Shown piece after piece: positions 20,312 to 45,249 of a stretch of 64,000 nucleotides of DNA; position 1 is the first letter of the stretch, and each line of letters begins with the position of its first letter. The stretch lies in assembly GCA_964548165.1 (NCBI GenBank), contig CAZJQD010000008.1, positions 1,979 to 65,978 of the forward strand, given 5' to 3'. The stretch is from an uncultured bacterium (GTDB lineage: Bacteria > UBA8481). The notes under the pieces were generated by a model, which saw only the letters and a list, made by a program, of their open reading frames with translations, was not told the origin of the DNA and ran no database searches. The translations under genes were made by a program, and so were the position numbers.

Positions 20312-20313
20312 CG

Positions 20314-22941: not shown

Positions 22942-23067
22942 AGCCGCGACGGCCGCCGACCGATAGCGCGGCATAGGGGGCGGACTGGCAGGAGGGCAGT
23001 CCGTCGCCGATAGGGAAAACCTGTGGAACATAAGGGGATAGCGTGTAGATTTGCAGAGGTTGGGAAC

Positions 23068-23096
23068 TTGACGAGAGCTTCTGAAAGCTTTAGAAA
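23068..23096 (+). promoter_or_regulatory. candidate sigma70-type promoter for smc (TTGACG-N17-TAGAAA) in the moderately AT-rich spacer
   Basis: -35 TTGACG at 23068-23073, 17-nt spacer, -10-like TAGAAA at 23091-23096, about 60 nt upstream of the smc GTG. Sequence-only prediction. Confidence 0.25.
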
Positions 23097-23157
23097 AGAG
23101 CGTCCCAGAACTGGAACGACACAGCTGAGCACACAGCTTAAACGCAGGAGCGTATCC

Positions 23158-26888: not shown

Positions 26889-27716
26889 ATGGCGTCGAGA
26901 GGCGACAAGAAGGGGACAGCGCGGGACCGCCGACAGCGTCCAGGCGACGAGGAGGACGTGGCGCCCGCGGCCGCGGCCCCCGCAAGTTCACCGGTCTCCC
27001 GCTGGCGTCGCCTTCTGCTGGCGTTTGCCGGCCTCGTCCTGCTGATCGGTTCGACCGCCTTTGCCGGGGCCTGGATGGGTATCCGGTCGGTGGAAACCTC
27101 GATCAATCATGGGCCCCAGGAGGTCGAAGAGGACGAGAGCGCGAGCCTGCCGCAACTGACTCTGACGCGCGGCCTGGACATTTCGATGGAGCGCTCGCTT
27201 CCCAGGCAGGGCGGGGAGGATCGTTTCCTGAGGGGACTGGTCAACTGGCGGCCCGGGGGTCGATTATCCGAGTCGGCCCCGCAGTCACCGGTGACCCCGG
27301 ATCAGGAGGCGGACGTCGAGCGCCCGATGGTGCCGCGCCCGCTGGCGGACACGCGCGTGGATCGGGACCCGTCCATCATCAGCGCCGCGGCGGAGCGAGC
27401 GGGGAGGCTGGGGGGTGCTGAACCGATCCGCGCTCCTCGCGCCATCGCCGGCGCGCGTACGCCGGCCGAGACCGGTGCGACGGTCCCGGGCAATCCCGGC
27501 GCCGTCTTGCCTGATGCGAGCCCCCAGTACGGGGTTCCAGCCTCGACAATATCTCCTCCCTCCGTCTACAATGACGCGGTCGGCGAGGCTGGGCGGCGCT
27601 CTCCTGTTCCCTACGCGGCTGAATACGCGCCCCCGCTCATGCCACCGCCCGTTGACGCTTCGCCCTTGGAATCCGGGGATGACCCGGGTTGGCGCCAGCG
27701 AGGACTCGTACCTTGA
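26889..27716 (+). CDS. hypothetical Pro-rich membrane-anchored protein
   Basis: One TM helix (RWRRLLLAFAGLVLLIGSTAFAGAWMGI), GC3-rich coding statistics, no recognised domain. Lies directly upstream of the polysaccharide export block. Confidence 0.35.
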   Translation: MASRGDKKGTARDRRQRPGDEEDVAPAAAAPASSPVSRWRRLLLAFAGLVLLIGSTAFAGAWMGIRSVETSINHGPQEVEEDESASLPQLTLTRGLDISMERSLPRQGGEDRFLRGLVNWRPGGRLSESAPQSPVTPDQEADVERPMVPRPLADTRVDRDPSIISAAAERAGRLGGAEPIRAPRAIAGARTPAETGATVPGNPGAVLPDASPQYGVPASTISPPSVYNDAVGEAGRRSPVPYAAEYAPPLMPPPVDASPLESGDDPGWRQRGLVP

Positions 27717-27795
27717 ATGGGAGGCAGGAGGCTTGGATTCTTCCGGCATTTTGGATCTTGTGTTCAGGCGACCCGGTGCCGATGGTGCCAAGAGG

Positions 27796-29175: not shown

Positions 29176-29191
29176 GAAGCAGGCGAAATCC

Positions 29192-31270
29192 ATGAACGGC
29201 GAGATGTCGCTCTGGGATTATCTCCGGGTTATTCGCCGTCGCTATCGCGTCATCCTCGCCGTGCCCTTCCTGGCCCTCTTGGTATCCATGCTGTATGCCA
29301 GGAACCTGTCGGAGATTTACGCCACTCGCGCGCTCCTGGAGATCCAGAAGAACCTGATTCGCGAGGGCGCGGGACTCCAGCGCGTCTTCGTCTCGGCCTT
29401 TGAACGGGCGACGCTGACCCGGCTTGCCGGGAACAAGGAAGTCGCCGCTTTCGCCGCGGAGCTCCTGGCCCAGGATCCGGAGTTTGCGGGCATGGACAGC
29501 GCGCGGTTGGCTGATGAGATCCGGGCCACGACCCAGGTCGGCAACCTGGAAAGCTCCAATCTGATCGAGGTTGGCGCCCGGGGCTCGAATCCCTCGCGCA
29601 TCACCAAGTTCTGCAACGCCTACGCGCAGGCTGTCATCCGGTATCACGACGAGCAGCGCCGCACGAGCGTGCAGGATCTCAAGGACTACCTGCTGGCGCA
29701 GATCGGGCGTTACGCCGAGAAGATCCATGGGCTCGAGCAGGACCTCATCCGGCTTCGCGCCCAGGGCGGCGGTGGCGCGACAGCGTCTCAGCCGGACCTG
29801 GCCCTGAGGATCGAGGAACGCCTCGCCGAGCTGAGATCGCGCGCGCGCCTGTCGGACGAGAGGCTGGCGGCCGTCGATCGCGCGGCCCTTTCCTCGGACG
29901 TGGAGGCCCTGGTGGCGGCGGTTCCCATGCCCGATCTTGCCCGGGACCTGCAGGAGCTGCGTGCCAAGCGGGCCGAGCTGGCGGATCTTCTCGGGAAATA
30001 CACCGAGGTGTATCCCTCGGTGGCCAGGGTCCGAGAGACCATCAGTCGACTGGAGGAGGGTTTGCGGGGCCGGTTGCCCGGCGCCGTCGCCACCGCTCGA
30101 CAGGTCGTCCTGGCCGAGAGGGAGTCCGTGCGACGGGAGCTCGAGCGGCTCCAGGCGGAACGGGCGATGATCGCGGCGGCGATGAGCGCTCTTCCGGACC
30201 GGCTCCAGCAGGAGGGATCGGCCCAGCGGGAGCTGGCGATCGCCACGTCGGTCAACCAGATGTTCCGCCAGCGTCTGGAGGACCTGGACCTATCCCTCTC
30301 CACTCCCTCGGATCGTCTCATCCTGGCGGAGGCGGCGCAGGTGCCCGCGAACCCCTATTACCCGAATCGCCGCCTGATCCTCTCGATCGGATTTTCGATT
30401 GGCCTGGCGCTCGCTCTGGCAACGGCCTTTCTCCTCGAGACGCTGGATACCAGCCTCTCGGCGATCAGCGAGGTGGAGCGGTTCGTCGGCAAGCCCATTC
30501 TCGCGGTCATCCCCTCGATCCGGATCGCGCCGCAGAAGGTCGCGGACTGCAAGTTCCCGGTGCGCAAGGAGCTCCTGGAGCGCCTCCCGCTCCTCGTGGA
30601 TTCACGGTCGCCCGCCGCCGAGGCCTATCGCACATTGCGCGCGGTCCTGCAGAGCCGCTTCTTTGCGGACGGTGGTCGCACCCTGCTGGTGACCTCCACG
30701 ACGCCCCAGGAAGGAAAGACGACGACGATCGTCAACCTCTCCATGGCGTGCGCGGCCGCCGGCATGAGAACGGTGCTGGTGGGCGCCAACATGCGCCACC
30801 CCGTCATCGGCCGCCATTTCGCCATCGATCGAACCCGCGGCCTCAACGAGATCCTCCAGGGGAGCATGACGATCGAGGAGTGTCTCCAGGCGACGGGACA
30901 CGAGAACCTCTCGATCATCGACTCCGGCGGCTTCGCCCGGCGGCCCGCGGAGCTCCTGGCCGGCCCCCGTTTCGATGAGCTCCTGGGGAGGCTGAAGGGG
31001 AGCTTTGACGCGGTCCTGGTGGATTCCCCGCCCAGTCTCCCGGTCGCCGACGCGGCCACCATGGCGTCCAAGGTGGACGGCGTTCTTCTCGTGTATCTTG
31101 TCAGCGTGGCGCCCCGTGATGCGCTCCTTCGCTGCAAGGAGATGCTCGAGAAGGTCGGTGGTCGGATCGTGGGGATCGTCTTCAACGACATCTGGGGAGC
31201 TTCGCAAATGGATTACGCGGGTTATTACTACCACCAGAAATACGCCGGCGACGAACTGAAGAGGTTGTAG
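29192..31270 (+). CDS. polysaccharide co-polymerase / tyrosine autokinase (Wzc/GumC/EpsB-like, PCP-2a), paralog 1
   Basis: N-terminal Wzz-type region (EMSLWDYLRVI…, TM), coiled coil, second TM. Cytoplasmic BY-kinase domain with P-loop TSTTPQEGKTTT, Walker B LVDSPP, and a C-terminal Tyr cluster YAGYYYHQKY. Confidence 0.8.
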   Translation: MNGEMSLWDYLRVIRRRYRVILAVPFLALLVSMLYARNLSEIYATRALLEIQKNLIREGAGLQRVFVSAFERATLTRLAGNKEVAAFAAELLAQDPEFAGMDSARLADEIRATTQVGNLESSNLIEVGARGSNPSRITKFCNAYAQAVIRYHDEQRRTSVQDLKDYLLAQIGRYAEKIHGLEQDLIRLRAQGGGGATASQPDLALRIEERLAELRSRARLSDERLAAVDRAALSSDVEALVAAVPMPDLARDLQELRAKRAELADLLGKYTEVYPSVARVRETISRLEEGLRGRLPGAVATARQVVLAERESVRRELERLQAERAMIAAAMSALPDRLQQEGSAQRELAIATSVNQMFRQRLEDLDLSLSTPSDRLILAEAAQVPANPYYPNRRLILSIGFSIGLALALATAFLLETLDTSLSAISEVERFVGKPILAVIPSIRIAPQKVADCKFPVRKELLERLPLLVDSRSPAAEAYRTLRAVLQSRFFADGGRTLLVTSTTPQEGKTTTIVNLSMACAAAGMRTVLVGANMRHPVIGRHFAIDRTRGLNEILQGSMTIEECLQATGHENLSIIDSGGFARRPAELLAGPRFDELLGRLKGSFDAVLVDSPPSLPVADAATMASKVDGVLLVYLVSVAPRDALLRCKEMLEKVGGRIVGIVFNDIWGASQMDYAGYYYHQKYAGDELKRL

Positions 31271-31280
31271 GAGCGGCGCG

Positions 31281-33530
31281 ATGGCCATCGGCTATGAAAT
31301 GTCGCTCCAGGATTACCTCCGGGTCATCTCGAAGCGTCGCTGGATCATTGTCATCTGCGCCTTCACGATCTTCGTCACGGCCATCGTCTATACCTCGAAA
31401 CTGACTCCCCGCTACGTGGCGCAAGGACGGGTGGAGTTGAACTACCAATCGACGCTGGCGAGCCTGCTTGCGGATGCCCTGCTCTACAAGGGGAACGAAT
31501 TGGCGACCGCGATCCAGTTCGCCTCTTCGATGCCGGTGATGGAGCGGGCCGCCAGGGAGCTGGGGCTCGTGGGGCCCCAGGCGACGAAGTCCCAGGCGAT
31601 AGCCGCCGCCGCCGACCTGCAGAGCAAGGTGGGCGTATCAGGCGACGGCCAGACCAATTTCATCCAGATATCCTTCACGCACTCCGATCCGCGGTTCTGC
31701 GCGGCCGCCGTGGACGCGATCGCCAATGCCTTTGCCAGGGAATATCGTTCCAGGAACACCCGGGATGCGGACCAGATCAAGATGTTCCTGGAAGAGCAGA
31801 TGCGTGCGGCGGAGCAGAAGCTCATCGACGCGGAGAACCAGATGCTGGCCTTGAAGCAGTCCCAGCGCGGGGTCACGCTGGAGCCGGGTATCCAGGCGAA
31901 CATCCAGCGCGTCGCGGAGATGGAGGCGGAACTGGAGCGGGTGAGGGCGGAGCGTCGGGGCGTCGAGGCTTCCTTCAACCAGCTGGCGGAGGAAGAGCGG
32001 AGCGAGGTTCCAGGAGGGGAGGCGACCGCCGCGGTGCAACGCGATCCGGCGGTGCAGGCCCTCAAGAAGCAGTTGTTCGAGGCCGAGGTCGAGCTGGCAA
32101 CGCGGCTGAAAACGCTGACTCCCAGGCACCCGGAGGTTCGGGCGGCCCAGGAGACCATTCGCCGCTTGCGCACGGAGATGGAGCTCACGATCGGCCAACT
32201 GGTCGAAGGCCATCGTTCCGGGCTGGAAGCCCGCGTCGTCGCGCTTCGCACGCGCGAGGACGCGCTCCTGCGCTCCCTTCCCAACTTGCGCGCCGCGCTC
32301 GACGACCTGCCGCGGCACCAGGTGGAAGTGGCCCGGGTGCAGCGAGCGATCGTCATGAACGAGAAGCTCTTCACGTTCTTCCGGGACAAGCTGGAGGAGA
32401 AGAAGTACGACGAGCTGGTCAACAGGGAAAACGCGATCACGGTCATCGAGCGGGCCGCGGTACCGCGCGTTCCGATCTACCCTGCGCGCTCCGCCAACGC
32501 CGCGATCGGTGTCGCCATCGGATTGATCCTCGGCCTGGCCCTGGCCTTCGTGGTGGAGGCGATGGACACATCGATCGGAACGATCGAGGATGTCGAACGC
32601 ACGACGGGCCTGTCCGTCATGGGCGTCATCCCCTCCATCGCCGTGGACGAGGAGTTGCCCGGTCGAACCCAGCAACCGGTGGTGGCGCTCGATCCCGAGC
32701 GGTCCAAGGCGAAGGATCTGCACGAACGGTTGAGCGAGCTGGAGGAGGTGTCGGCAGTCTCGGCGGGATCGGGGCGTGGCGGGAGCGAGGCGTTTCGCCC
32801 CCAGCTCATCACGTTCTACGATCCGAAGTCGCCCATTTCCGAGGCCTACCGCACGCTCCGCACCAATGTCCAGTTCAAGGGCCTGATGGGCAACGCCAAG
32901 ACGCTCACCATCACGTCCTCTGGTCCCCAGGAGGGCAAGACCACGACCCTGTGCAATCTCGCCGTCGCCATTGCCCAGTCCGGCCAGCGCGTGCTCGCGA
33001 TCGGCTGCAATCTCCGTCGCCCCGCCCTGCACAAGATGTTCGGCATTCGCAAGAAGCCGGGATTGACCGACGTGCTGATCGGCGCTCGGACCTGGCAGGA
33101 GGTTGTGCAGGAGACGGGCATCGAGAACCTGCATGCCTTCTGTTCCGGCCCCATCCCGCCGAATCCCTCCGAGCTCCTGGGTTCGCCCGAGATGACGGAA
33201 CTGATCCGCCAGGTTCGGGAGGCTTACGACGTGATTCTGCTGGACTGCCCGCCCGTCCTGCCCGTGACCGATGCCGCCGTGCTGGCCTCGAAGACCGACG
33301 CGGTTCTCCTCGTGTACTTCGTGGGGCGCGCGGCGCGCGAGGCCCTGCTCAGGGCGAAGGTCCAGCTCGAGAATGTCGGCGCCAAGATCCTTGGAGTCGT
33401 CTTGAACCAGATCCCGGCCGAAGGTCGCCTCGGCTACTCCTACTACTATTATCACTACCACTATTACGGGGAGACGGCGCGCGAGGATAAATTGCAGCAG
33501 CAGAAAGTTCTCAAGAAGAAGCGCAGCTGA
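31281..33530 (+). CDS. polysaccharide co-polymerase / tyrosine autokinase (Wzc-like), paralog 2
   Basis: Same architecture as paralog 1 (EMSLQDYLRVI…; P-loop TSSGPQEGKTTT; LLDCPP). Longer C-terminal Tyr cluster YSYYYYHYHYYGE. SD GGAG. Confidence 0.8.
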   Translation: MAIGYEMSLQDYLRVISKRRWIIVICAFTIFVTAIVYTSKLTPRYVAQGRVELNYQSTLASLLADALLYKGNELATAIQFASSMPVMERAARELGLVGPQATKSQAIAAAADLQSKVGVSGDGQTNFIQISFTHSDPRFCAAAVDAIANAFAREYRSRNTRDADQIKMFLEEQMRAAEQKLIDAENQMLALKQSQRGVTLEPGIQANIQRVAEMEAELERVRAERRGVEASFNQLAEEERSEVPGGEATAAVQRDPAVQALKKQLFEAEVELATRLKTLTPRHPEVRAAQETIRRLRTEMELTIGQLVEGHRSGLEARVVALRTREDALLRSLPNLRAALDDLPRHQVEVARVQRAIVMNEKLFTFFRDKLEEKKYDELVNRENAITVIERAAVPRVPIYPARSANAAIGVAIGLILGLALAFVVEAMDTSIGTIEDVERTTGLSVMGVIPSIAVDEELPGRTQQPVVALDPERSKAKDLHERLSELEEVSAVSAGSGRGGSEAFRPQLITFYDPKSPISEAYRTLRTNVQFKGLMGNAKTLTITSSGPQEGKTTTLCNLAVAIAQSGQRVLAIGCNLRRPALHKMFGIRKKPGLTDVLIGARTWQEVVQETGIENLHAFCSGPIPPNPSELLGSPEMTELIRQVREAYDVILLDCPPVLPVTDAAVLASKTDAVLLVYFVGRAAREALLRAKVQLENVGAKILGVVLNQIPAEGRLGYSYYYYHYHYYGETAREDKLQQQKVLKKKRS

Positions 33531-34981
33531 TGTCCCTTGCCGACACCGCCAGGGGGCTGGATTCGCCCTACCGCATCGATGGAGGGCGCACGAATAGACC
33601 CATGGCCGGCGCCATGGGCGTGGTCTTCCTGGCCTTGGGAATCGTCCTGCTGCTGGCCGGGCAAGCCAGCTCGTCCGGTTCCTCCATGCTGGCGATCGCC
33701 ATCGTCAGCGTCATCGTCGTCCTCTTCACGCTCATCGACGTCGAGTTCGGCATCTATTGCCTTGTCGCGGGAATGCTGCTGTCGCCCGAGATCGAGCTGG
33801 ATTTCATCAGGCTTCCCTCGCGCGCCGTCGTCATTCGCGTGGACGACCTCATGATCCTCATGGTCAGCGCCGCCTGGTTCGCGCAGACCGCGGTGCGCGG
33901 CAAGATCGACCTGCTCATGAATACGCCCCTGAACCGGCCCATCCTCCTCTTCACGTTGCTCTCGGTGATATCCACGGTGAGAGGGTCCTTCACCGGCGCC
34001 GTCGGTTCCCCCATGACCGCGTTCTTCTTCGTCTTGAAGTTCGTCGAGTTCTTCCTGCTCTATTTTCTCATCGTCAACACGGTCACCAACGAGGAGGCCA
34101 TCAGGCGCATCATGAAGGCCTATTTCCTCACCCTGCTGGTCGTGGTGGCCTACGCCACGTGGAATGTTCTCATCGTGAAGACCCACGGCAGGGCCACGAC
34201 ACCCTTCGAGAGCTCGGAGGAACCCGGAACGCTCGGCGGCTACCTGCTCTTCTCCTTCGCCCTGGCCTTCGGCCTGCTCAACTACGTGCCTGGCATCGTC
34301 AGCAAGCTCTTCTATGGGGCCATCATGGTGGCCATCGTACCGCCCTTCCTGTACACGCTCTCCCGGGGATCCTACATGGCGTTCTTTCCGATGTTCCTGA
34401 CCGTGATCCTCTTGAGCCGCCGCAAGATCGTTCCGCTCATGCTCCTCGTCGTCACGGTCTTTGCCGCGCCCTACATGCCACAGGCCACCATAGAACGCGT
34501 GGAGTATACCTTTCAGAATCGGGTTGAGAACTTGTGGTCCAGCGATCCGGACGACAAGGTCGAGCTCGATCCTTCGTCCCTCGCGCGCCTCGAGCGGTAC
34601 GACGGGGTCATCCGCCAGTGGCAATACCAGCCGCTCCTGGGCCAGGGCGTGACCGGCGTTGGTTTCGTCGACAGCCAGATCATGCGCGTATTGGGCGAGC
34701 TGGGCATTCTCGGCCTGTTGACGCTCATCTGGATATTCAAGGCCTTGTTCCAGACGGCTCTTCGCATGTACCGCTGGTTGCCGCCCGGCTATTCCAAGGG
34801 GCTCGTGCTCGGCATGATCGCGGGTACCGCCGGCCTCATCTTTCACGGGGCCACGGCCAATACCTTCACGGTCGTGCGCATTGCCGGGCCGTTCTGGGTT
34901 ACCGCCGGTCTCACCGTCGTCATCTTCAAGATCCACGAGAAGGAACTTCTGCTCCAGGAGAGCCAGCAGCGTGCGGCTTGA
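33530..34981 (+). CDS. O-antigen ligase / Wzy-type polysaccharide polymerase family membrane protein
   Basis: ATG overlaps the wzc2 stop (TGATG). About 10-12 TM helices with a large periplasmic loop, typical of the Wzy_C/O-antigen ligase family. 483 aa. Confidence 0.65.
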   Translation: MSLADTARGLDSPYRIDGGRTNRPMAGAMGVVFLALGIVLLLAGQASSSGSSMLAIAIVSVIVVLFTLIDVEFGIYCLVAGMLLSPEIELDFIRLPSRAVVIRVDDLMILMVSAAWFAQTAVRGKIDLLMNTPLNRPILLFTLLSVISTVRGSFTGAVGSPMTAFFFVLKFVEFFLLYFLIVNTVTNEEAIRRIMKAYFLTLLVVVAYATWNVLIVKTHGRATTPFESSEEPGTLGGYLLFSFALAFGLLNYVPGIVSKLFYGAIMVAIVPPFLYTLSRGSYMAFFPMFLTVILLSRRKIVPLMLLVVTVFAAPYMPQATIERVEYTFQNRVENLWSSDPDDKVELDPSSLARLERYDGVIRQWQYQPLLGQGVTGVGFVDSQIMRVLGELGILGLLTLIWIFKALFQTALRMYRWLPPGYSKGLVLGMIAGTAGLIFHGATANTFTVVRIAGPFWVTAGLTVVIFKIHEKELLLQESQQRAA

Positions 34982-36403: not shown

Positions 36404-37267
36404 GTGAGCGGATCTGAGGGACTCATCGGAGTCATCGGCGGCAGCGGCATCTACCAGATGGAAGGCCTCGTGGACGTGGAGGAGATCCGCGTCGACACGC
36501 CCTACGGATCGCCGTCCGACGCGATCATCCTGGGCACGCTCTCGGGACGCCGTTGCGCCTTTCTCCCGCGGCATGGCCGGGGGCACCGTCTCCTGCCGCG
36601 CGAAGTCCCCTCCCACGCCAATCTCTATGCCCTCAAGAGCCTCGGTTGCGACTGGGTGCTGGCGCTCTCGGCGGTTGGTTCGCTCAAGGAGGACGTCAGG
36701 CCCCGCGACGTCGTCATTCCCGACCAGGTCGTCGACGGGACGCGTCAGCGGCACGGTACCTGGTTCGGCGACGGGATCGTGGCTCACGTCTCGATGGCCG
36801 ATCCCTTCTGCCCCGTGCTCCGCCGCGCGCTCGTCGACAGCTGTCGCGCGCTCGGGGTGAGCGTGCACGACGGAGGAACCTACTACTGCATGGAGGGGCC
36901 GGCCTTCTCCACGAAGGCGGAATCCGCCGTGAACCGTTCCTTCGGCCACAGCGTCGTCGGCATGACCGCGCTCCCGGAAGCTCGGCTGGCCCGCGAGGCC
37001 GAGCTGGCCTACGCGCTCGTCGCGCTCTCCACGGACTACGACGTCTGGCACGAGTCGGGGGAGGTCTCCGTCGAACTCGTCCTGGAGAACCTGCACGCGA
37101 ACGCGCGCAACGTCCAGCGGATCGTCAAGGACGTGGTAGGGAAGATTCCCCGCGAGCGGACGAGCCCCGCGCACGAGGCTCTCCGGGGGGCGATCATGAC
37201 CGATCGCAAGCTCTGGCCGCCGGCCACCATCGAGCGGCTCGGGATCATCGTGGAGAAGTACGCGTGA
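36404..37267 (+). CDS. mtnP: S-methyl-5'-thioadenosine phosphorylase (MTAP/MtnP, PNP family)
   Basis: GTG with SD AGGAGG. IGVIGGSGIYQMEGL…LPRHGRGHRLLP…ALSAVGSL…HVSMADPFC…YYCMEGPAFSTKAES…VVGMTALPEARLAREAELAYAL. Confidence 0.85.
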   Translation: MSGSEGLIGVIGGSGIYQMEGLVDVEEIRVDTPYGSPSDAIILGTLSGRRCAFLPRHGRGHRLLPREVPSHANLYALKSLGCDWVLALSAVGSLKEDVRPRDVVIPDQVVDGTRQRHGTWFGDGIVAHVSMADPFCPVLRRALVDSCRALGVSVHDGGTYYCMEGPAFSTKAESAVNRSFGHSVVGMTALPEARLAREAELAYALVALSTDYDVWHESGEVSVELVLENLHANARNVQRIVKDVVGKIPRERTSPAHEALRGAIMTDRKLWPPATIERLGIIVEKYA

Positions 37268-38982
37268 GCGCGGCGTATGGCAAGGAACACCTGGGATCGC
37301 TCCTCGTGCGCGCCGGCGTCCTCAAGGAGTCGGATCTCAAGGCCGCCCTCGACGAAGCGCAGAGCGACAATCGCCGACTCGGCGACGTGCTGATAGCGCG
37401 GGGACTCACGACCGAGGACCAGATCCAGCACTTCCTCAGCATTCAGCTGGGCTACCCGACCATCGACCTCGATCGGACCTGGATCGACCCCGAGGTCGCG
37501 CACGCCCTGCCGGAAAAGTTCGCGCGCCGCTACGGCGTGCTTCCGCTCTACCGCGCCGACGCCTCGGGAGGCCAGGCCGTGGTCGTGGCCATGACCGATC
37601 CCACCGACATCGTGGTGCAGGACGAGATTCGCAACGCGCTCGGGCAGGAGATCTTCGTGGTGATGTGCCTTCCGCGCAGCGCCATGGATCGCCACCTCGA
37701 CCGCCTCTGGCTCTCCGCCCCCGTCGTCGTGGAGGAGCCCGCCAGCGCCGCGGTCACGGAGTCGGCGCCCCCGCTCCTGCCGCTGGGCGGCGAGGAACTC
37801 AAGCCCTCCGTCGCCAGGCTCCTGGAGACGCTCTTCAAGCAGGCCCTGGATCTGCGGGCGTCCTCCGTGCATCTCGAGCCCAAGCAGAAATTCGTCTCGG
37901 TTCGCTATCGCATCGATGGGCAGTACACCAACGTCACCTCGCTGCCCCGGGACCTCTACCAGGCCGTCTTGACGCGGCTCAAGATCCTCGGGAAGCTGAC
38001 GGTTGGCGAGGCCGTGCAGGTGCTCGAGGAGGGGCGCTTTCATCTCCGTCCCGACCTGGTGGCGCCGCCCATCGATATCCGCGTGAGCATCGTTCCCGCG
38101 CTCTTCGGCGAGAAAGTAGTCCTTCGGATCACGCGGCGCTCGGAGATCATCCGTCCCCTGGCGGACCTGGGGTTCGAGGCCGGGCAGACCAGGGAGCTGG
38201 ACGAGCTCCTGGCGGCCCCTGCCGGCCTGATCCTGGTTGCCGGAAAGAATGATTCCGGCAAGACCACGACCGCGTACTCGTGCCTCTCCGTGATGGGAGG
38301 ACCCTCGACGATGATCGTCACGATCGAGGATCCCCCTGCCTACCCGGTGTCGAGTTTCAACCAGTTGAGAAAAGTGCACCTGCCGGAGACCCCGGAGACC
38401 GCCGCCTGGGACATGACCGTCAAGGCGGTGGAGAGACAGGAGCCGAACCTCGTGTACATGTCGAGCGTGGAGACGCGTGACGAGGTCAAGATGATGCTCA
38501 GGCTCGCCGCAACCGGTCGGCGGGTCCTGGCCACGCTCTTCGCCGATGACGCCGTCTCCGCCCACTGGGTTGCTCTCCAGCTGGGCGCCGACTCGTTTGC
38601 CATCGGATCGGTTCTAGCCGGCGTGATCAACGCCCGCCTCGTCCGCCTGCTCTGCCCTCATTGCCGCCGCCCCGCCCAGGCGCCGCCGCCGGACGCCGTG
38701 CTCGCGCGGTTGGAGCTCACGCGCGACTGGTTGAAGGGGAAGACACTCTACGCCGCCGTCGGATGCGAACTGTGCGGCGGTCACGGGTACCTGGGCCGGA
38801 CCGGCGTCTTCGAGGTTTTGACCGTGAAGGAACATCTCCGGGAGATGGTCGAGTCCAAGGTGCCATCCGACCTCATGCGCCGAGCCGCGATCGAGGCCGG
38901 CATGATGCCGCTCAGGGAGGCCGGATTGGCCAAGGTCCTGCGCGGGGAGACCACCATCGAGGAACTCGCCAGCCGCATCTAA
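37264..38982 (+). CDS. GspE/PilB-family ATPase-like protein with an N-terminal MshEN (T2SSE_N) domain; both c-di-GMP-binding motifs intact, His-box degenerate (likely regulatory pseudo-ATPase or divergent ATPase)
   Basis: GTG start overlaps the mtnP stop (GTGA). MshEN 24-residue motifs HLGSLLVRAGVLKESDLKAALDEAQ and RLGDVLIARGLTTEDQIQHFLSIQ. P-loop VAGKNDSGKTTT. Asp box IEDPPAYP. Walker-B-like YMSSVETRDEV. His box LVLSTLHTNDA replaced by RVLATLFADDA. Tetracysteine CPHC…CELC retained. Confidence 0.8.
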   Translation: MSAAYGKEHLGSLLVRAGVLKESDLKAALDEAQSDNRRLGDVLIARGLTTEDQIQHFLSIQLGYPTIDLDRTWIDPEVAHALPEKFARRYGVLPLYRADASGGQAVVVAMTDPTDIVVQDEIRNALGQEIFVVMCLPRSAMDRHLDRLWLSAPVVVEEPASAAVTESAPPLLPLGGEELKPSVARLLETLFKQALDLRASSVHLEPKQKFVSVRYRIDGQYTNVTSLPRDLYQAVLTRLKILGKLTVGEAVQVLEEGRFHLRPDLVAPPIDIRVSIVPALFGEKVVLRITRRSEIIRPLADLGFEAGQTRELDELLAAPAGLILVAGKNDSGKTTTAYSCLSVMGGPSTMIVTIEDPPAYPVSSFNQLRKVHLPETPETAAWDMTVKAVERQEPNLVYMSSVETRDEVKMMLRLAATGRRVLATLFADDAVSAHWVALQLGADSFAIGSVLAGVINARLVRLLCPHCRRPAQAPPPDAVLARLELTRDWLKGKTLYAAVGCELCGGHGYLGRTGVFEVLTVKEHLREMVESKVPSDLMRRAAIEAGMMPLREAGLAKVLRGETTIEELASRI

Positions 38983-39025: not shown

Positions 39026-41116
39026 ATGGGTTCGTGGGCTCGCATAGGCGCCTTGTCATTCCTCGCGTTCACCGCCGTGGGTGCCTTCGGCTACTACGGG
39101 CGGCAGGGGGGGCTCGATGCCGCCGCCGGGTTCTCGCTCATGGGCGCCGCGGTGGGGGCCGAGGCGCGGATCAAGGAAGTTCTCCAGGAAAATCCCTCGG
39201 ACATCGAGGCCTGGATGCAGCTTGGGGATTTCTACCAGGAACATCGCCGGCTTCCGGAGGCGCTGGGGGCCTATGAGCAGGCGGCCCTGATCTCGGCCGG
39301 CGAACCGGGTGCGGTCCTGCGCCTGGCACAGGTCCAGATTCGCCTTGGCGCGCTGCTCGACGCCGAGACGCGCGTGGCGGGGCTCCTGGCCGCGCGGCCC
39401 GTCGACTCGGCGGCCATCAAGGTGCTCGGATGGATCGCCGTTCACCGGGCCATGGATGGCGCCGTGGGGATCGATGGCCTGTCGCCCGATCCCGAGCGCC
39501 TGGCGGAGGCGGATCGCCGATTCGCACGCGCGCTACGCATTTCGCCCGACGACGCCGAGGCTTTCCTTGGCCGCGCGGTCGTGGCCAGGCTCGAGGGCCG
39601 CGATGTCTCCGCGCTCGCCCTGGCCGAGGAAGCCATCGATCGAGACAGCGCCTTGTATTGGCCCTGGCAGATCCGCGGCGAGATCCTGGTCGACCTGGGG
39701 CGCGATTCTGACGCCCAGGCCGCCCTGGCGGGCGCCCGGGCCCGGGATCGGGGCCGCCCCTACTCGCTCATGGAGATGGCCGCGCTCTCTCGTCGTCTCA
39801 AGCGCCCCGAAGAAGCCGCCGCGTTCATGGCGGGAGTCGGACCTGATGGCGCGTTCAATCGCGGCGCCGACCTCCTGGCCGCCAACAGGCCCGCCGAGGC
39901 CGAGGCGGCCTTCCTGGACGCGCTCCTCGCGGATCCCGAGGATGACCTGGCGATGGATCGGCTCGAGAGAGTCCGGCTCCTCATCTATCCGGCTGACGAT
40001 ACGCGGCGCGTGGAGCTTGCGGACCGGCGTCTTTTGAAGGCCGCCCGGTCCGAAGCGGTCAACAACACGCTCCTGGCCTACCTGCATTACCGCCGCGCCG
40101 TCGCCCTGGCGCCTCAGCTCTCCGAGGCTCGGCTCAAGATGGCCCGGTTCTTCGAGCGCCAGGGATCCTTCACCTCCGCGGTCACGCAGTTGCGTCGCGT
40201 CGAGGAGCTGACGCGGTCCCAGACCGAGCGGCTCGTGGCCTCGGACCTCCTCGAGATGATCACCCGGCGGGCGCTCACCGAGATGGAGTCGACTCATGCC
40301 GTGAGTTTCGGGGCGATCTGGGAACAGCCGACCGGGGTCCTGGGCGAGCTCGTGGGCAACCCCGAGGTCCTGGAGGAGCGAATACGATGGAGCGTGACGC
40401 CCGTGCCTCGGCCCAGGTTGCGCGTCGCCATCCTTCCTTTCGCCGAGGCCCTGAGGCCCTTTCACGCGGGGGTCGGCCGGTTGAGTGGGGAATGGCTGTC
40501 GGGAACGCTGGGCCTCCTGCCGGGCTTCGAGCTCATTCCTGCCGCCGAGGTCGAGGCGGCCATGGCGCGGCATGGATTCACCAATCCCGACGCGATCGAT
40601 CCGGGATTGCTGGGCAAGGAACTCGGCGCCGAGCTGATCGTGCGCGGGCGCATCCTGGAGGCGCGCGAGGACGTGACGCTCCGGGTCGAGGCGGTCCTCG
40701 TTCCCGTCGGCCCCGTGGTCTGGCGGCAGGAGTACGCGGTTCGAGGAGGTGAGGCGCTGACACGAACCATCCTCGAAGCTGCGCGCGCGCTCGCCTGGCA
40801 CGCGCCCCTGGAAGGGACCGTCGTCCGGCGCCGAGACCGGAACCTGGTCACGGTCAACCTGGGCCGGGCCTATGGCGTCCGCATCGGGGATACGATGGTG
40901 ATCGAACGGCGCGGGCTCGAACTGTTCGCCCCGGGATATGACTGGCCCGGCCGCCGCGCCGACGTGATCGGCGAAGGGAGGGTTGTGGGGCTGACGGAAC
41001 GCTATGCCGAAGTGCGCTTGTTGCCGACAACGACCCCGGCTTCGGGCGTAGAAGCCCGACCCTCGACGCCCACGCAACTCGTCCGCGCGGGCGATATCGT
41101 TCGTCGCCGGCGATAA
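39026..41116 (+). CDS. TPR-repeat protein with signal/TM anchor and an uncharacterised C-terminal alpha/beta domain, hypothetical
   Basis: N-terminal hydrophobic segment. About 350 aa of TPR-like Ala/Leu-rich repeats. C-terminal ~250 aa (…RLRVAILPFAEAL…VTVNLGRAYGVRIGDTMVIERRG…) of unknown family. Confidence 0.5.
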   Translation: MGSWARIGALSFLAFTAVGAFGYYGRQGGLDAAAGFSLMGAAVGAEARIKEVLQENPSDIEAWMQLGDFYQEHRRLPEALGAYEQAALISAGEPGAVLRLAQVQIRLGALLDAETRVAGLLAARPVDSAAIKVLGWIAVHRAMDGAVGIDGLSPDPERLAEADRRFARALRISPDDAEAFLGRAVVARLEGRDVSALALAEEAIDRDSALYWPWQIRGEILVDLGRDSDAQAALAGARARDRGRPYSLMEMAALSRRLKRPEEAAAFMAGVGPDGAFNRGADLLAANRPAEAEAAFLDALLADPEDDLAMDRLERVRLLIYPADDTRRVELADRRLLKAARSEAVNNTLLAYLHYRRAVALAPQLSEARLKMARFFERQGSFTSAVTQLRRVEELTRSQTERLVASDLLEMITRRALTEMESTHAVSFGAIWEQPTGVLGELVGNPEVLEERIRWSVTPVPRPRLRVAILPFAEALRPFHAGVGRLSGEWLSGTLGLLPGFELIPAAEVEAAMARHGFTNPDAIDPGLLGKELGAELIVRGRILEAREDVTLRVEAVLVPVGPVVWRQEYAVRGGEALTRTILEAARALAWHAPLEGTVVRRRDRNLVTVNLGRAYGVRIGDTMVIERRGLELFAPGYDWPGRRADVIGEGRVVGLTERYAEVRLLPTTTPASGVEARPSTPTQLVRAGDIVRRRR

Positions 41117-41187
41117 TCAAGGGAGTGCGGAACGGGTGGCAGGAAGTCGCTCCAAGGGCTAGGATATCCCTCGCCAGAGGCCTCTTG

Positions 41188-42456
41188 ATGACACCCCATT
41201 GCCAAGTCCCGTCCTCCCCGGGCCCCTCTTCGGGCGGACGTTTCGCTCCGGGCGCCCGCAAGCCCCGCCTGCTCCACCGGTCTGCCCGTGCCTCGATCGT
41301 GGCGTTCCTGGTGAGCTTGGCCTGTCACGAACCCGCCGCCGCCCGGATTGGATACGGGGTTGCGTCCATCGACGACGCCTCGACGCTCTGGGCTCAAACC
41401 TGGGAGATCAAGCTCGGTCTCGAGGCCGGCGCCAATTACCGGCTCGAGGGAAGCGATGTCACGGCCGTCAGGGTGCCCACCCAGATCCGCTACGGGTGGC
41501 GCGAGCGCCTGGAGTGGGGATTCCTCCTGCCCTTTCTCTACCAGCAGACCGACAATAATAAGTTCGACGGGAGCGGGATTGGCGATATTGCCATCGCCTT
41601 GAAATACCAGATGACGCAGGACGAGGAGAACTACCCGGCCACGGCCACGGAGGTACGCCTGGGCTACGGCGCGGGAACGGCCACGGCCAGCGACGCGCTC
41701 TCGATTGCGATCAACTACGCTGTCTCGAAGTCCTTCGGTGAGCGCGGCGTCGCCCACGGAAACCTGGGCTACACGTTCTTCACCGCCGATCGGCAGGACG
41801 TTCTCAGCTGGGGAGCCGCCTACGATTACCGCTTCCTGGAGACCTTGAGGGGATTCCTCGGGGTCAACTCGGGAAGCCAGATGATGCCCGGGGTGCGAAA
41901 TGACATCATCGCCGAGCTGGGCGTGACCAGGCAGGCCGGTCCCTCGCTCGAGTACCAGCTGGCCGCCGGGATCGGCCTGAACAAGAACAGCCCGGACTGG
42001 CAGGTGCGTTTCGGTTTTACCAAGGAGCTCGGGCGCGGGGCGGGCGAGGCCACGAATTTTCGCAGGGCCGAGTGGAGCCATCCGCCGGCGCCGGGGGCCG
42101 CCGAGATCGTGGCGCGGGGAGAGAATGCGGCACGAACGGGCGATTACACCCTGGCCATATCGTACTATCGCGAGGCGATCACCATCGACTCGTCGCTCCC
42201 CTCGGCCTGGAACAACATGGGAATCGCCTACTTCAAGCTGGGCCGCACGACCGAGGCCATGGAGGCCTATGAAAACGCGGCTAAGCTTGCGCCCGACAAT
42301 GCCGACATATACTTCAACATGGGACTCGCTCATTACAAGTTGGGAGACATCTATGCCGCCCGGCGGGCATTTGCGCGCGCGCTGGAACTGAACCCCGAGC
42401 ACGGGCAGGCGCGGAGCAACCTCTTGTCCCTGGAAGGACGCACGGGAGCGCGATGA
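41188..42456 (+). CDS. predicted outer-membrane beta-barrel protein fused to C-terminal TPR repeats, hypothetical
   Basis: N-terminal half has alternating-hydrophobicity beta-strand pattern with aromatic girdle residues (…YRLEGSDVTAVRVPTQIRYGW…, …QVRFGFTKEL). C-terminal three TPRs (…AWNNMGIAYFKLGRTTEAMEAYENAAKLAPDNADIYFNMGLAHYKLGDIYAARRAFARALELNPEH…). Start uncertain. Confidence 0.45.
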   Translation: MTPHCQVPSSPGPSSGGRFAPGARKPRLLHRSARASIVAFLVSLACHEPAAARIGYGVASIDDASTLWAQTWEIKLGLEAGANYRLEGSDVTAVRVPTQIRYGWRERLEWGFLLPFLYQQTDNNKFDGSGIGDIAIALKYQMTQDEENYPATATEVRLGYGAGTATASDALSIAINYAVSKSFGERGVAHGNLGYTFFTADRQDVLSWGAAYDYRFLETLRGFLGVNSGSQMMPGVRNDIIAELGVTRQAGPSLEYQLAAGIGLNKNSPDWQVRFGFTKELGRGAGEATNFRRAEWSHPPAPGAAEIVARGENAARTGDYTLAISYYREAITIDSSLPSAWNNMGIAYFKLGRTTEAMEAYENAAKLAPDNADIYFNMGLAHYKLGDIYAARRAFARALELNPEHGQARSNLLSLEGRTGAR

Positions 42457-42890
42457 AAAACCTGATCATTATTGCCCTGGTTCTTGCCGCGGGCTGGTTC
42501 GGCTGGCAGAAGTTCACCCAGGGATACTGGGCCTCCGCCACGGCCAGGGACTTCGTCGAGGAACTGCGCCTCGGGATGGACAGCGGTTACCTCTCCAAGG
42601 CGATCAGCAGCTGGCAACCCCCGCTCCCGGAGAAGCAGCTGACGCTTCCGGCCGAGGGGATATCACCGGATTTCACGGTGACCATGGACAGCGAGCCCGT
42701 CCAGATCGCCGGGCGCACGACGATCTACTACCTCGTCACGTTCGGGAAGTCGCCCGTGGCCACGGGCGGTCGAAGCCTGCGCTACGAGTATCGCCTTACG
42801 CTCGTCAACGAGGGGACGAATTTCATCCCCAAGTGGACGACGGTCATGTTTCATCCCACGTCTCGCCGTGCGAATCGCGACGCGGCCTGA
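42453..42890 (+). CDS. small secreted/membrane-anchored hypothetical protein
   Basis: ATGA overlap with the upstream gene. N-terminal signal-anchor MKNLIIIALVLAAGWFGW. Confidence 0.45.
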   Translation: MKNLIIIALVLAAGWFGWQKFTQGYWASATARDFVEELRLGMDSGYLSKAISSWQPPLPEKQLTLPAEGISPDFTVTMDSEPVQIAGRTTIYYLVTFGKSPVATGGRSLRYEYRLTLVNEGTNFIPKWTTVMFHPTSRRANRDAA

Positions 42891-45153
42891 CGCCCTCCGC
42901 GTTCCCGTGAGGACTCCAGGCCATTCCGCCGGCACGGTCCTCGCCCTGTTCCTTCTCGTCGTTTCGGCCGGAGGCCTTGCCGAGGCCGCGTCGCAGAGCG
43001 TGCAGTTGCAGCAAGCGCGGCGGCTCTTCGAGGCCGGTCGCTACGCGCAGGCGATCGGGGAGTTCCGGCGGATCGCCGCGAGCGGTGAGAACACATCCGA
43101 GGCCGTGATCGCCGGGTACTACGTGGGGCTGACCGAGGAGAGGCGCGGCAACCGCGATGGCGCCATCACGGCCTATCGGGCGCTCTTGTCGCGCCATGGA
43201 GAATCCACGGAGATGGCGGGTTTCGCGCGCCAGAGGCTCAGGGAGCTCGAGTCCGGGGCGCCGCCTCGTGCGGCCGAGGTCTCCGACGCCGCCGTTGCCC
43301 CCGCGGTGCCGGCGCCCGACGTGACTACCACCGCGGCGCCGACGGCGGTCGATCGCCTCGCGCAGTCCGTGCTCTCGGACATCATGAGCAGCGATCGCGG
43401 CGCGGCACGCGTGTCGCGTCGCGCTCCGCCGTCTCGCCGCTCGCCTCGCCCGATCGCGGCGTCGCCGGCCCCCGTCTGGCCGAGCGCCGGGGGCGGATCC
43501 TCCTCCGCAGGAGCGGATTTTCCCGTCGCGCCCGAAGCGAGCTTTCCGATCGCGTCGGCCCTGGGCCCTGTTCCGGGCCCCTCGGCGATGGCACCCCGCT
43601 ATCCCTCTCCGTCCGCGGTGCCGGATTACCCCCTGGTGACCAGCATCACGTGGGGCCAGGGGGCAAGCGCCCCCTCCCGCGGCACGCTAGCCACATCCTC
43701 ACCGGACGCCACCATGGAGCCCGCTGCTGTCCAGTCCACCGGGTATCAACCCCTGGGCGAGGATGTCGCACGAGCCACTCACGTGCGCCGATCGATGCCG
43801 ACGACGGCGTTGGCGACGGACGTCTCGTCGCCCGGCGCTGGGCGACCGGTGGCTGCCTCGACGGCGCCAGTCGTGACCTGGGAAGTGTCGGTGGAGCCGG
43901 CCGCATCACCGGTGACACGCCCGGCGGGGCGAGTTCCCCCTCCAGCCTCGGGCACTGCGCTCGGTGGACCTCGAGGTTTTGCATGGCCGCAAGGCGATCC
44001 GGAGGGACTTCCTCCACTCGGGGCCTCCAGGCCCTCGTTCTCGCCGATCGCCATTCCGGCTGATGTGCCGTCGCTCTTGGGGTCCGATCCGCGCTCCGCT
44101 GGCGGATCACCTTCCCCGCTACCGGCGCCGCGTTCAGCGTCCCCGACCCCGGCGCCAGGAGGCGAGGTTGGCCCAGCGCAGGTGCCCCCCCCGTCTCCGG
44201 TCCCGGCGCCGCTCCCCGCCGCGCGTCCTGAAGATCGCGCCGCCGCTCTCGGAACTGCGCCTTGGGCGGGACTTTCCGTTGGAGCGCCGGTTGGTGTCTC
44301 TCTGCCCGCGCTCACGGTCGAGGAATTGGCCCCTGCTCCCCAGGTCAATCCTTCACCGACACCGCAGGCCGCGACGGCGCCGGTTCAGCCCCTGGAGGGG
44401 TGGTTGCTTCCCAGCCCCTCCGCGGTATCCCCGATCTCCCAGGATCCCTATTCCCTTCCCGCCCCTCTGCCGGCCAGCGGCGGTTCCGTCGGCGGTGACT
44501 TCGGCGATCTATCCCTTCCTTCGCCGTCCTTGACCGCGAGTGTCGGCATTCCCTCGGGCGCCCGGCCACCCTCGGTGAGCGCCCTCGATCAACCCCTGGC
44601 GCCGATCGAGCTGGCCCCGACCGGTGTCCCGGGTCAGACGCTCGCCGCGCCCGGTCCCTCGGCGCCCTGGGTCGAGAAGGCGCTCTCGTTGAAGCGGTTG
44701 GGACAATATCCCGAGGCGATCGAGGCCTACCGCCAGGCGCTCCTCGTGGACACCGGGAATCCCGTCGTCTTGAACAACCTTGCCGATCTCCTGGTGGAGC
44801 AGGGCGGGGACCTCGACGAGGCGATCCGGCTCGTCAAGGACGCGCTCGCCGCGGAGATCGCCGATCGGGGACCCTATTTTTCGACCCTGGGATGGGCCTA
44901 CGCGCGTCGTGGCGACCTGGACGAGGCGGAAAAATATCTCGACGAGGCCGTCAGAGTCGCGGCGACGGCCAGCCGGCTTTATCGTCGCGGCAGGGTCTAC
45001 GCCGCCCTGGGGCAGGCTGCGAGGGCCAGGGCCGACTTCGATCGGGCGCTCGTGTATGCTGAGGACGCCGCCACGGCTTCGCTGGTGCGCCAGGCCCTGG
45101 CGGAGATGGATCAACCGATCCCGGGTCAAGGAACACCCGGGATCATCCGATAA
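42868..45153 (+). CDS. secreted TPR protein with a ~450-aa Pro/Ser/Ala-rich low-complexity core, hypothetical
   Basis: Signal peptide (…AGTVLALFLLVVSAGGLAEA). N-terminal TPR-like repeats. Long PxxP/SP-rich disordered region. C-terminal TPRs (…ALSLKRLGQYPEAIEAYRQALLVD…). Alternative GTG start at 42907. Confidence 0.5.
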   Translation: MRIATRPDALRVPVRTPGHSAGTVLALFLLVVSAGGLAEAASQSVQLQQARRLFEAGRYAQAIGEFRRIAASGENTSEAVIAGYYVGLTEERRGNRDGAITAYRALLSRHGESTEMAGFARQRLRELESGAPPRAAEVSDAAVAPAVPAPDVTTTAAPTAVDRLAQSVLSDIMSSDRGAARVSRRAPPSRRSPRPIAASPAPVWPSAGGGSSSAGADFPVAPEASFPIASALGPVPGPSAMAPRYPSPSAVPDYPLVTSITWGQGASAPSRGTLATSSPDATMEPAAVQSTGYQPLGEDVARATHVRRSMPTTALATDVSSPGAGRPVAASTAPVVTWEVSVEPAASPVTRPAGRVPPPASGTALGGPRGFAWPQGDPEGLPPLGASRPSFSPIAIPADVPSLLGSDPRSAGGSPSPLPAPRSASPTPAPGGEVGPAQVPPPSPVPAPLPAARPEDRAAALGTAPWAGLSVGAPVGVSLPALTVEELAPAPQVNPSPTPQAATAPVQPLEGWLLPSPSAVSPISQDPYSLPAPLPASGGSVGGDFGDLSLPSPSLTASVGIPSGARPPSVSALDQPLAPIELAPTGVPGQTLAAPGPSAPWVEKALSLKRLGQYPEAIEAYRQALLVDTGNPVVLNNLADLLVEQGGDLDEAIRLVKDALAAEIADRGPYFSTLGWAYARRGDLDEAEKYLDEAVRVAATASRLYRRGRVYAALGQAARARADFDRALVYAEDAATASLVRQALAEMDQPIPGQGTPGIIR

Positions 45154-45249
45154 CGGCAGGGGAGGGTGCCTCGGCATCGTGAACCGCTTGCGACCGCGAC
45201 GGTCGTGGCGTCTTCAGGATACCGGGCAACGCAGAGAACGAGGCTGATC

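Follow-up and report, generated by a model that had tools for sequence, protein, structure and literature searches.

In the 64,000-nt stretch of contig CAZJQD010000008.1 analyzed here (“the window”), an intact gspE is accompanied by a second gene of the PilB/GspE secretion-ATPase family, designated psPilB. We propose that the psPilB protein is a pseudo-ATPase that responds to cyclic di-GMP (c-di-GMP): a PilB/GspE/MshE-type hexameric motor, specific to the Hydrogenedentota, that would have been turned into a ligand-controlled, non-hydrolyzing scaffold or switch. We assign this reading a probability of roughly 0.55. An earlier inspection of the letters alone (the “sequence-only reading”) had suggested a regulatory pseudo-ATPase carrying a c-di-GMP receptor domain, on the basis of a His-to-Phe change in the HIS box. 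That prediction is supported, with four catalytic residues lost instead of one.

Family membership was assessed with profile hidden Markov models (HMMs). psPilB scores 226 bits against Pfam T2SSE PF00437 (cut-off 24.9), which is half of the 457 bits obtained with the canonical GspE of the window. It also passes the cut-offs of Pfam MshEN PF05157 (57.4 bits, cut-off 23.1) and of the NCBIfam model for the MshE-related c-di-GMP motif, NF053729 (50.9 bits, cut-off 38). The equivalog thresholds for PilB (TIGR02538, 325 versus 675.65 bits) and GspE (TIGR02533, 306 versus 630.25 bits) are not reached. An AlphaFold2 (AF2) model built on a 93-sequence alignment has a mean predicted local distance difference test score (pLDDT) of 90.5 and a predicted template modeling (TM) score of 0.81. 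Its best Foldseek matches are PilF, PilB and GspE structures, with target-normalized TM scores of ∼0.90 (0.90 for both 5tsh, the Geobacter metallireducens PilB, and 5oiu) and root-mean-square deviations of 2.4 to 3.0 Å. The N1D-N2D-CTD architecture and the tetracysteine Zn motif are both present by AF2, Foldseek and alignment. Because the model superposes on PilB, PilF and GspE, the substitutions described below sit within a PilB fold that is ordinary in other respects. Fold and domain content clearly place psPilB in the family, though as an outlier.

Translation begins at a GTG codon with a Shine-Dalgarno-like GGAG ∼10 nt upstream. A longer open reading frame (ORF) of 809 aa starting from a TTG at 36553 was rejected: the extension runs out of frame over the upstream gene for S-methyl-5′-thioadenosine phosphorylase (MTAP), and orthologs all begin M/V-x-x-x-Y-x-K-E-H-L-G. 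All peptide strings quoted in the sequence-only reading were found in the translations, at psPilB residues 9 (HLGSLLVRAGVLKESDLKAALDEAQ), 38 (RLGDVLIARGLTTEDQIQHFLSIQ), 325 (VAGKNDSGKTTT), 398 (YMSSVETRDEV) and 420 (RVLATLFADDA), and at residue 340 of the canonical GspE (LVLSTLHTNDA).

Residue roles were carried over from the G. metallireducens PilB (GmPilB) via HMMER alignments to three solved PilB/PilF chains. Native GmPilB numbers were obtained by subtracting 20 from the 6olj chain index, which was verified on E395, D398, E400, E357, T411, H413 and H420. The roles themselves (Mg2+ coordination, catalysis and contact with the γ-phosphate) were defined by McCallum et al. 2017 (PMC5424180), where conservation across the whole PilT-like family is described as complete for the catalytic Glu and the ASP-box Glu and as high for a HIS-box His.

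Four catalytic residues of GmPilB are replaced in psPilB: E357 by A359, E395 by S401, H413 by R419 and H420 by F426. F426 occupies the position of the His that contacts the γ-phosphate, and this register agrees among HMMER, a MAFFT alignment with 71 relatives, and AF2/Foldseek; the His-box substitution named in the sequence-only reading is therefore real. The Walker B substitution, likewise proposed beforehand, is confirmed by alignment, with the catalytic Glu becoming Ser. A two-residue shift that would place VETRD onto GEIRD and thereby rescue the catalytic Glu was considered and rejected, as the clade of psPilB orthologs does not conserve that Arg and the consensus in most members is VDTxEE. 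The shifted register is also excluded by the basal members P0021 and P0022 (SEVRG/SSIRD), which align ungapped, and by HMMER and MAFFT, both of which give ungapped alignments. What is kept comprises K333 and T334 of Walker A (GmPilB K331 and T332), T417 (GmPilB T411) and the arginine fingers R258, R273 and R288 (GmPilB R257, R271 and R286), each of which is Arg or Lys across the clade. Conservation is also good for the acidic pore-loop residue D406 and for the N2D. Approximately six residues are inserted after the ASP box relative to the canonical family.

In Myxococcus xanthus PilB, the change E391A abolishes ATPase activity (PMC5544727). Judged from its active-site residues, psPilB very probably hydrolyzes no ATP at a useful rate. 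Most members of the clade may still bind an adenine nucleotide.

To define the clade, 5.8 billion proteins were searched, together with 1.84 billion representatives at 50% identity. The clade consists of 22 sequences (46–100% identity, at least 493 bits), after which scores drop to 320 bits and 33% identity, values that belong to ordinary PilBs. All named members are from Candidatus Hydrogenedentota. Only four genomes among the GTDB species representatives carry a member, and the clade forms two clusters among the 50%-identity representatives. For comparison, the 22 sequences, 20 of which constitute the core, were aligned using MAFFT with 71 canonical relatives as an outgroup. Residues E359, G400, E401, R403, D404 and H426 are present in 100% of the canonical relatives and in 0% of the core members. 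H419 is present in 69 of 71 canonical sequences (97%) and in none of the 20 core members, and Arg takes its place in 21 of the 22 clade sequences. The recurrence of the HIS-box change among orthologs was checked at position 426, which is Tyr or Phe in 22/22 clade members and His in 71/71 outgroup sequences. Because the replacement residues are themselves conserved (K328, N329, D330, A359, R419, A427, D428 and S432-x-H-W-V), they represent a new fixed state and not drift. Of the two basal members, P0021 retains both E359 and E401 and P0022 only E359, yet each shows the H-to-R, H-to-Y and P-loop G-to-D changes. This part-way state points to a stepwise decay that began at the HIS box.

Beyond the clade, the first 45 of the remaining 148 sequences among the best 150 representative hits were scanned for motifs and are canonical, save one tandem fusion with a degenerate half. 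Many proteins of ∼1000 aa in the representative library (P0134 to P0147) consist of two PilB units in tandem. P0135 joins a degenerate first half (GPTGSGTTT, EDPVQL) to a canonical second one, so that a dead and a live ATPase are fused as a pair.

The residues just described also bear on whether psPilB could remain an active ATPase. In that case, non-canonical residues (D/E403, two positions past the lost Glu, and P-loop D330 for the metal) would support catalysis and the protein would power an unrecognized envelope machine made of the flanking tetratricopeptide repeat (TPR) genes. Walker A is intact as GxxxxGKT in 17/22 members, the three arginine fingers are kept, clade-specific acids are frequent (D330 in 21/22, D/E403 in 17/22 and E407 in 20/20 core members) and the CTD is under strong purifying selection, all of which would fit such an enzyme. 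We nonetheless consider it very unlikely. The four family-conserved residues for Mg binding, water activation and γ-phosphate sensing are all gone, and a single catalytic E-to-A change is sufficient to yield an ATPase-dead PilB (PMC5544727). Furthermore, the candidate substitute D403 is missing in five members and the cluster contains no gene for a platform protein (GspF/PilC-like). Five members have also lost the Walker A Lys (K333 to Met, two orthologs) or Thr (T334 to Asn, three orthologs), which implies that nucleotide binding is not essential in every member.

The same losses, along with scores that miss the PilB and GspE equivalog thresholds by a wide margin, might be expected of a decaying paralog that is becoming a pseudogene. 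This explanation is effectively refuted by selection and conservation data. Values for dN/dS (Nei-Gojobori method) were derived from the closest pair, the window gene and its ortholog on contig L004, for which dS is ∼1. The ratio is 0.12 overall, 0.13 for N1D, 0.05 for N2D and 0.11 for CTD, indicating that the gene is maintained by purifying selection. In addition, 22 orthologs, the most divergent at 46% identity, have an uninterrupted ORF, the substituted positions (including Y/F426) are conserved, the predicted fold is confident, and both synteny and translational coupling with the neighboring gene are conserved.

The proposed input domain was compared with the motif of Wang et al. 2016 (PMC5013675), who described two 24-residue motifs in Vibrio cholerae MshE (Arg9–Gln32 and Arg38–Gln61) with five residues between them. 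psPilB has the same 24+5+24 layout with the same numbering (residues 9–32 and 38–61). Motif II was tested against the consensus RLGxx(L/V/I)(L/V/I)xxG(L/V/I)(L/V/I)xxxxLxxxLxxQ, which psPilB matches perfectly. Its key positions are kept in 19 to 22 of the 22 clade members (R38 in 21/22; L39, G40, L43 and Q61 in 22/22), more strictly than in ordinary PilBs. Motif I retains all hydrophobic and Gly positions (L10, G11, L14, G18, L25 and L29) and differs at both polar ones: position 1 is His in 17/22 members, and position 24 is Ala, Val, Ser or Ile and never Gln (0/22, versus 60/71 in the outgroup). The description of both motifs as intact in the sequence-only reading thus holds for motif II and overstates the case for motif I, which has R9H and Q32A. 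Note also that the string quoted there as a 24-residue first motif is a 25-mer; the true motif I spans residues 9–32. Across the domain, each of the pocket residues L10, G11, L25, L29, L39, G40, I54, L58 and Q61 is shared by 19 or more of the 22 members.

Published binding data permit an estimate of what these changes might cost. In MshE, mutations of hydrophobic residues reduce affinity by more than 10-fold, whereas changes of Arg9 or Gln32 have effects of at most ∼5-fold (PMC5013675). The GSPII-B domain of Thermus thermophilus PilF binds c-di-GMP with a dissociation constant of 6 nM despite Lys and Leu at the position-1 sites (PMC11731258), and the Arg at that position is therefore dispensable. 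Taken over to psPilB, the mutational data suggest that R9H and Q32A lower the affinity for c-di-GMP without abolishing binding. Affinity has probably changed with the disappearance of both polar side chains from motif I. The psPilB pocket is nevertheless likely to bind c-di-GMP, because conservation of motif II and of all hydrophobic and backbone contacts equals or exceeds that seen in ordinary PilBs. In the window's canonical GspE, N1D comprises the C-terminal subdomain only and the 53-residue c-di-GMP motif is missing; psPilB is hence the sole MshE-type c-di-GMP module in the window.

The state of motif I has led us to weigh a different role, in which psPilB is no longer a c-di-GMP sensor, N1D serves for docking only, and the dead ATPase is a structural subunit or a competitive inhibitor of the canonical GspE/PilB machine, acting via mixed hexamers or competition for GspF/GspL. 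The N1D of GspE binds GspL, which offers a precedent for docking. Both polar ligand-contact side chains of motif I are gone (R9H; Q32 replaced by A, V, S or I in 22/22), and MshEN-like domains whose motifs deviate can fail to bind, as does PilF GSPII-A (PMC11731258). The window also holds a canonical type II secretion system (T2SS) operon whose GspE has no c-di-GMP motif, the conserved D406 and N2D would suit a subunit of mixed rings, and P0135 illustrates that dead and live modules can cooperate. This role is still unlikely in our estimation, since the hydrophobic and backbone determinants of the pocket and the entire motif II are stricter than in ordinary PilBs, which is hard to explain without a ligand, and since NF053729 scores above its cut-off. 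Moreover, psPilB never lies beside T2SS or type IV pilus (T4P) platform genes in seven ortholog contigs, the exception being a prepilin peptidase gene three genes downstream on contig L085.

Under the pseudo-ATPase reading, an ancestral PilB/MshE-type secretion ATPase would have lost hydrolysis while keeping its fold, the Zn-binding Cys4 motif, a minimal Walker A and the arginine fingers. MshEN would sense c-di-GMP, and ligand bound at N1D would alter the dead N2D-CTD body in its conformation or its oligomeric state. By analogy with the systems below, this altered state would be sensed by a partner instead of driving a platform protein. A closed state, with nucleotide bound or mimicked, would fit the retention of Walker A and the arginine fingers and the constraint on N2D. 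The output, proposed below to be the neighboring envelope genes, might alternatively be the canonical T2SS, by way of mixed rings or competition. Control of exopolysaccharide (EPS) by M. xanthus PilB requires neither ATP hydrolysis nor pilus assembly, and the nucleotide state of the protein sets its signaling conformation (Black et al. 2017, PMC5544727). In Chloracidobacterium thermophilum PilB, c-di-GMP bound at N1D and ADP bound at CTD influence one another allosterically (Dye & Yang 2020, PMC6957770). Both results make the conversion of a motor into a switch plausible.

Table 1. Features of the window discussed in the text (window positions)
Feature	Positions	Strand	Remarks
gspC (gspC-like with PDZ)	2940–3767	+	
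Canonical gspE, comparison gene	6519–7991	+	All catalytic motifs intact; within gspC...gspE-gspF operon
gspF	8135–9340	+	
1595-codon frame	18154–22941	+	Radical SAM domains in second half
SMC gene	23023–26709		
Polysaccharide-export genes	27415–34981	+	Wza-type exporter, two Wzc-type chain-length/tyrosine-kinase proteins, Wzy_C-family membrane protein
MTAP gene, 287 codons	36404–37267	+	TIGR01694, 317 bits (cut-off 275)
psPilB coding sequence, PilB/GspE-family pseudo-ATPase (predicted), 572 aa	37264–38982	+	GTG start; HMMs, AF2, Foldseek
MshEN motif I, residues 9–32, HLGSLLVRAGVLKESDLKAALDEA	37288–37359	+	Position 1 Arg to His, position 24 Gln to Ala
MshEN motif II, residues 38–61, RLGDVLIARGLTTEDQIQHFLSIQ	37375–37446	+	Perfect consensus after 5-residue spacer
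N1D C-terminal subdomain, residues 62–148	37447–37707	+	Pfam MshEN/T2SSE_N match
N2D with arginine fingers R258, R273, R288	37804–38163	+	Lowest dN/dS (0.05)
Walker A, GKNDSGKT	38242–38265	+	Family-invariant P-T-G to K-N-D (usual GPTGSGKT); matches the minimal GxxxxGKT/GxxxxGK[ST] pattern
ASP box, TIEDPPAY	38320–38343	+	Mg-coordinating Glu (GmPilB E357) to A359 (EDPVE to EDPPA)
Atypical Walker B, RQEPNLVYMSSVET	38434–38475	+	Catalytic Glu (GmPilB E395) to S401, next R-D to E-T (GEIRD to SSVET)
HIS box, TGRRVLATLFADDA	38512–38553	+	H413 to R419 (TGH to TGR); γ-phosphate His H420 to F426
Zn-binding tetracysteine C464, C467, C501, C504	38653–38775	+	Intact; Cys invariant
696-aa protein (TPR696): N-terminal anchor, TPR region, FlgT-like C-terminal half	39026–41116	+	Conserved downstream neighbor
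Downstream co-directional genes: β-barrel+TPR, 145-aa, 761-aa TPR, 984-aa TPR with ComEA-like helix-hairpin-helix (HhH) end	41125–48120	+	Synteny with psPilB conserved
443-aa β-barrel+TPR protein	41125–42456	+	
984-aa TPR protein (TPR984)	45166–48120	+	
519-aa protein	48188–49747	+	ComEA-like HhH end
430-aa protein	50214–51506	+	Nearly all ankyrin repeats

The MTAP gene is the conserved upstream neighbor of psPilB throughout the clade (Table 1). In the window its TGA stop codon overlaps the psPilB GTG start as GTGA, and a 4-nt ATGA or GTGA overlap is found in five or six of eight loci, with a short gap elsewhere. Overlaps of this type are the commonest start/stop overlap in operons. The overlap had been called unusual beforehand; it is real and amounts to ordinary translational coupling, the notable point being that the pairing is conserved across the clade.

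The wider array reads Wza, Wzc, Wzc, Wzy_C, proC, yggT, MTAP, psPilB, TPR696, β-barrel+TPR, 145-aa protein, TPR761 and TPR984. The full order from Wza to TPR984, on both sides of psPilB, is found in four of seven ortholog contigs (L001, L004, L005 and L006). L008 keeps the upstream part, and this contig ends just past psPilB. On the contigs of the most distant orthologs, L002 (53% identity) and L085 (49%), only MTAP, psPilB and a TPR gene of ∼700 codons are kept, a trio that is present in every contig reaching beyond psPilB. In the seven ortholog contigs, no platform (PilC/GspF), PilM/GspL, pilin/pseudopilin or secretin genes were found beside psPilB, the L085 prepilin peptidase already mentioned being the nearest case. 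A promoter and terminator scan of 26.5–42 kb gave no terminator-like sites in the gaps flanking the MTAP, psPilB or TPR696 genes. All of its terminator hits lie within coding regions, where 12 were counted versus a shuffle mean of 6.7 (s.d. 2.5), a modest excess that should be considered weak evidence.

The Wza-type exporter passes the XrtA/PEP-CTERM exporter equivalog. The Wzc-type kinases have no MshEN motif of their own, and the possibility that Wzc1 is a second pseudo-enzyme was dismissed because a PQEGKTT P-loop and clusters of Tyr at the C-terminus occur in both Wzc-like proteins. In TPR696, an N-terminal hydrophobic anchor is followed by ∼300 residues of TPR, and the C-terminal half matches FlgT (3w1e, E = 1.4e-12), a periplasmic flagellar protein. 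An invariant helix, RVEELTRSQxERL, occupies residues ∼391–403 and has low pLDDT in the model. Among the 5.8 billion proteins, TPR696 has 12 matches, all from the same lineage and located on psPilB-carrying contigs wherever context could be checked.

It is possible, if tentative, that psPilB acts on the neighboring envelope and polysaccharide system (Wza-Wzc-Wzc-Wzy along with the TPR/FlgT-like, β-barrel-TPR and TPR-HhH proteins), an output suggested by neighborhood only. A more specific and distinctly unlikely version holds that psPilB is an ATP-independent, c-di-GMP-gated cytoplasmic switch of an undescribed Hydrogenedentota trans-envelope system, comprising the TPR/FlgT-like protein, a β-barrel-TPR outer-membrane protein, TPR proteins with ComEA-like DNA-binding ends and Wza-Wzc-Wzc-Wzy. 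A variant of it supposes that His9 and Ala32 of motif I would have shifted ligand preference away from symmetric c-di-GMP. If the trans-envelope version were true, a type IV filament motor would have been recycled as a pure signal transducer for assembly of a matrix of polysaccharide and extracellular DNA.

Several points weigh against the pseudo-ATPase reading and its proposed output. psPilB still has Walker A (GxxxxGKT) and its arginine fingers, and several new conserved acidic residues lie near the active site (D330, D403, E407 and D428), so that unusual catalysis is formally possible. At both polar positions (R9H and Q32A), motif I does not fit the search pattern of Wang et al. 2016 even in its relaxed form, [RKPN]hGxxhhxx[GAS]hhxxxxhxxxhxx[QNKRYWST]. 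In PilF, a Gln-to-Glu change in GSPII-B lowers affinity ∼80-fold, and GSPII-A, with one degenerate motif, does not bind c-di-GMP (PMC11731258). A scan of the window found no GGDEF or EAL genes, a result that says nothing about the whole genome. TPR696 is, as modeled, probably periplasmic, and direct contact with a cytoplasmic psPilB would be unlikely. Contig L002 has no Wza-Wzc cluster beside the trio, and L005 has a ∼6-kb insert between psPilB and the TPR696 ortholog (L005:11680–17727); due to these departures, the link to polysaccharide export rests on neighborhood only. Finally, both the loss of ATPase activity and the binding of c-di-GMP by psPilB should be considered predictions.

Further features of the surrounding DNA were recorded. 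From 27415 to 51506 on the forward strand, ∼24 kb are co-directional with gaps of 0 to 112 nt, and beyond TPR984 the array continues with a second HhH-ended protein (519 aa), a 149-aa ORF and the ankyrin-repeat protein that closes the cluster. The whole looks like a lineage-specific envelope/matrix supra-operon, the order of which is kept through TPR984 in four Hydrogenedentota contigs. TPR984 and the 519-aa protein, which are adjacent and secreted-looking, share ComEA-like HhH ends with a near-identical motif, IVWYRENVGP[FI]R. Their sequences suggest extracellular or periplasmic DNA binding tied to the TPR cluster. The 443-aa protein has an N-terminal β-barrel (weak Phenol_MetA_deg match) and C-terminal TPRs, the reverse of the domain order in the TPR-porin exporters PgaA and BcsC. 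On L085, which carries basal P0021, the order is yggS-proC-yggT-MTAP-psPilB-TPR-STAS-aroE-prepilin peptidase (L085:3159–11525). In Proteobacteria, a PilT-family ATPase gene lies beside the same genes (pilT/yggR-yggS-proC-yggT), and by this analogy psPilB may descend from a T4P-linked locus.

In the window, psPilB lies ∼30 kb downstream of the canonical gspC-gspE-gspF genes and outside any T2SS or T4P operon. The T2SS operon (2940–9340, forward strand) has a gap at the expected position of the secretin. Pfam Radical_SAM_N2, Radical_SAM and DUF2344 match the 1595-codon frame from residue ∼788 only, and its first half could be either an extension called in error or a domain without annotation; the SMC gene is next.

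PilB/GspE-type ATPases are regarded as obligate motors. In the literature searched, which is not exhaustive, no description was found of a natural PilB/GspE pseudo-ATPase or of Hydrogenedentota pili or EPS. The psPilB clade would provide a natural separation-of-function test of the M. xanthus-derived proposal that PilB can act purely in signaling, and would show which parts of the scaffold serve signaling as opposed to work. The locus also draws attention to a conserved, uncharacterized envelope/polysaccharide cluster of an uncultured phylum. These results are narrow in scope (22 sequences, or two clusters at 50% identity, from a small uncultured lineage) and the activity claims are predictions.

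psPilB shares with V. cholerae MshE, Pseudomonas aeruginosa PA14_29490, T. thermophilus PilF and C. thermophilum PilB the N1D(MshEN)-N2D-CTD fold, the 24+5+24 spacing, the Zn-binding Cys4 motif, the arginine fingers and the GKT of Walker A. Unlike MshE, PilB and GspE ATPases, it is without the ASP-box Glu, the catalytic Glu and both HIS-box His residues, has GKNDSGKT as its P-loop and His and Ala in motif I, falls under the equivalog thresholds, and is not encoded with pilins, a platform protein, a secretin or GspL/PilM. The predicted combination of regulatory output without ATP hydrolysis, an N-terminal c-di-GMP motif and a link to EPS (for psPilB, a genomic one) resembles that of M. xanthus PilB (PMC5544727) and C. 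thermophilum PilB (PMC6957770). M. xanthus PilB, however, is a fully active moonlighting motor, whereas psPilB has apparently given up the motor role entirely, through natural substitutions, in a genome with a separate canonical GspE.

As an enzyme fold that has lost catalysis and is kept for c-di-GMP control of surface structures or polysaccharide, psPilB is predicted to resemble FimX and LapD (dead EAL/GGDEF domains) and PelD, and would add an ATPase-derived member to the pseudoenzymes of c-di-GMP signaling. In FimX, LapD and PelD the dead catalytic domain itself binds c-di-GMP, whereas psPilB has a separate receptor domain and its dead ATPase is presumably the output or scaffold. An MshEN-type motif also governs polysaccharide production in the Escherichia coli glycosyltransferase NfrB and in EpsG-type tyrosine kinases of PEP-CTERM EPS loci, and the models for NfrB and EpsG match the N-terminus of psPilB where its motifs lie. 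Their outputs are a glycosyltransferase and a kinase, respectively, whereas that of psPilB is a PilB-derived body.

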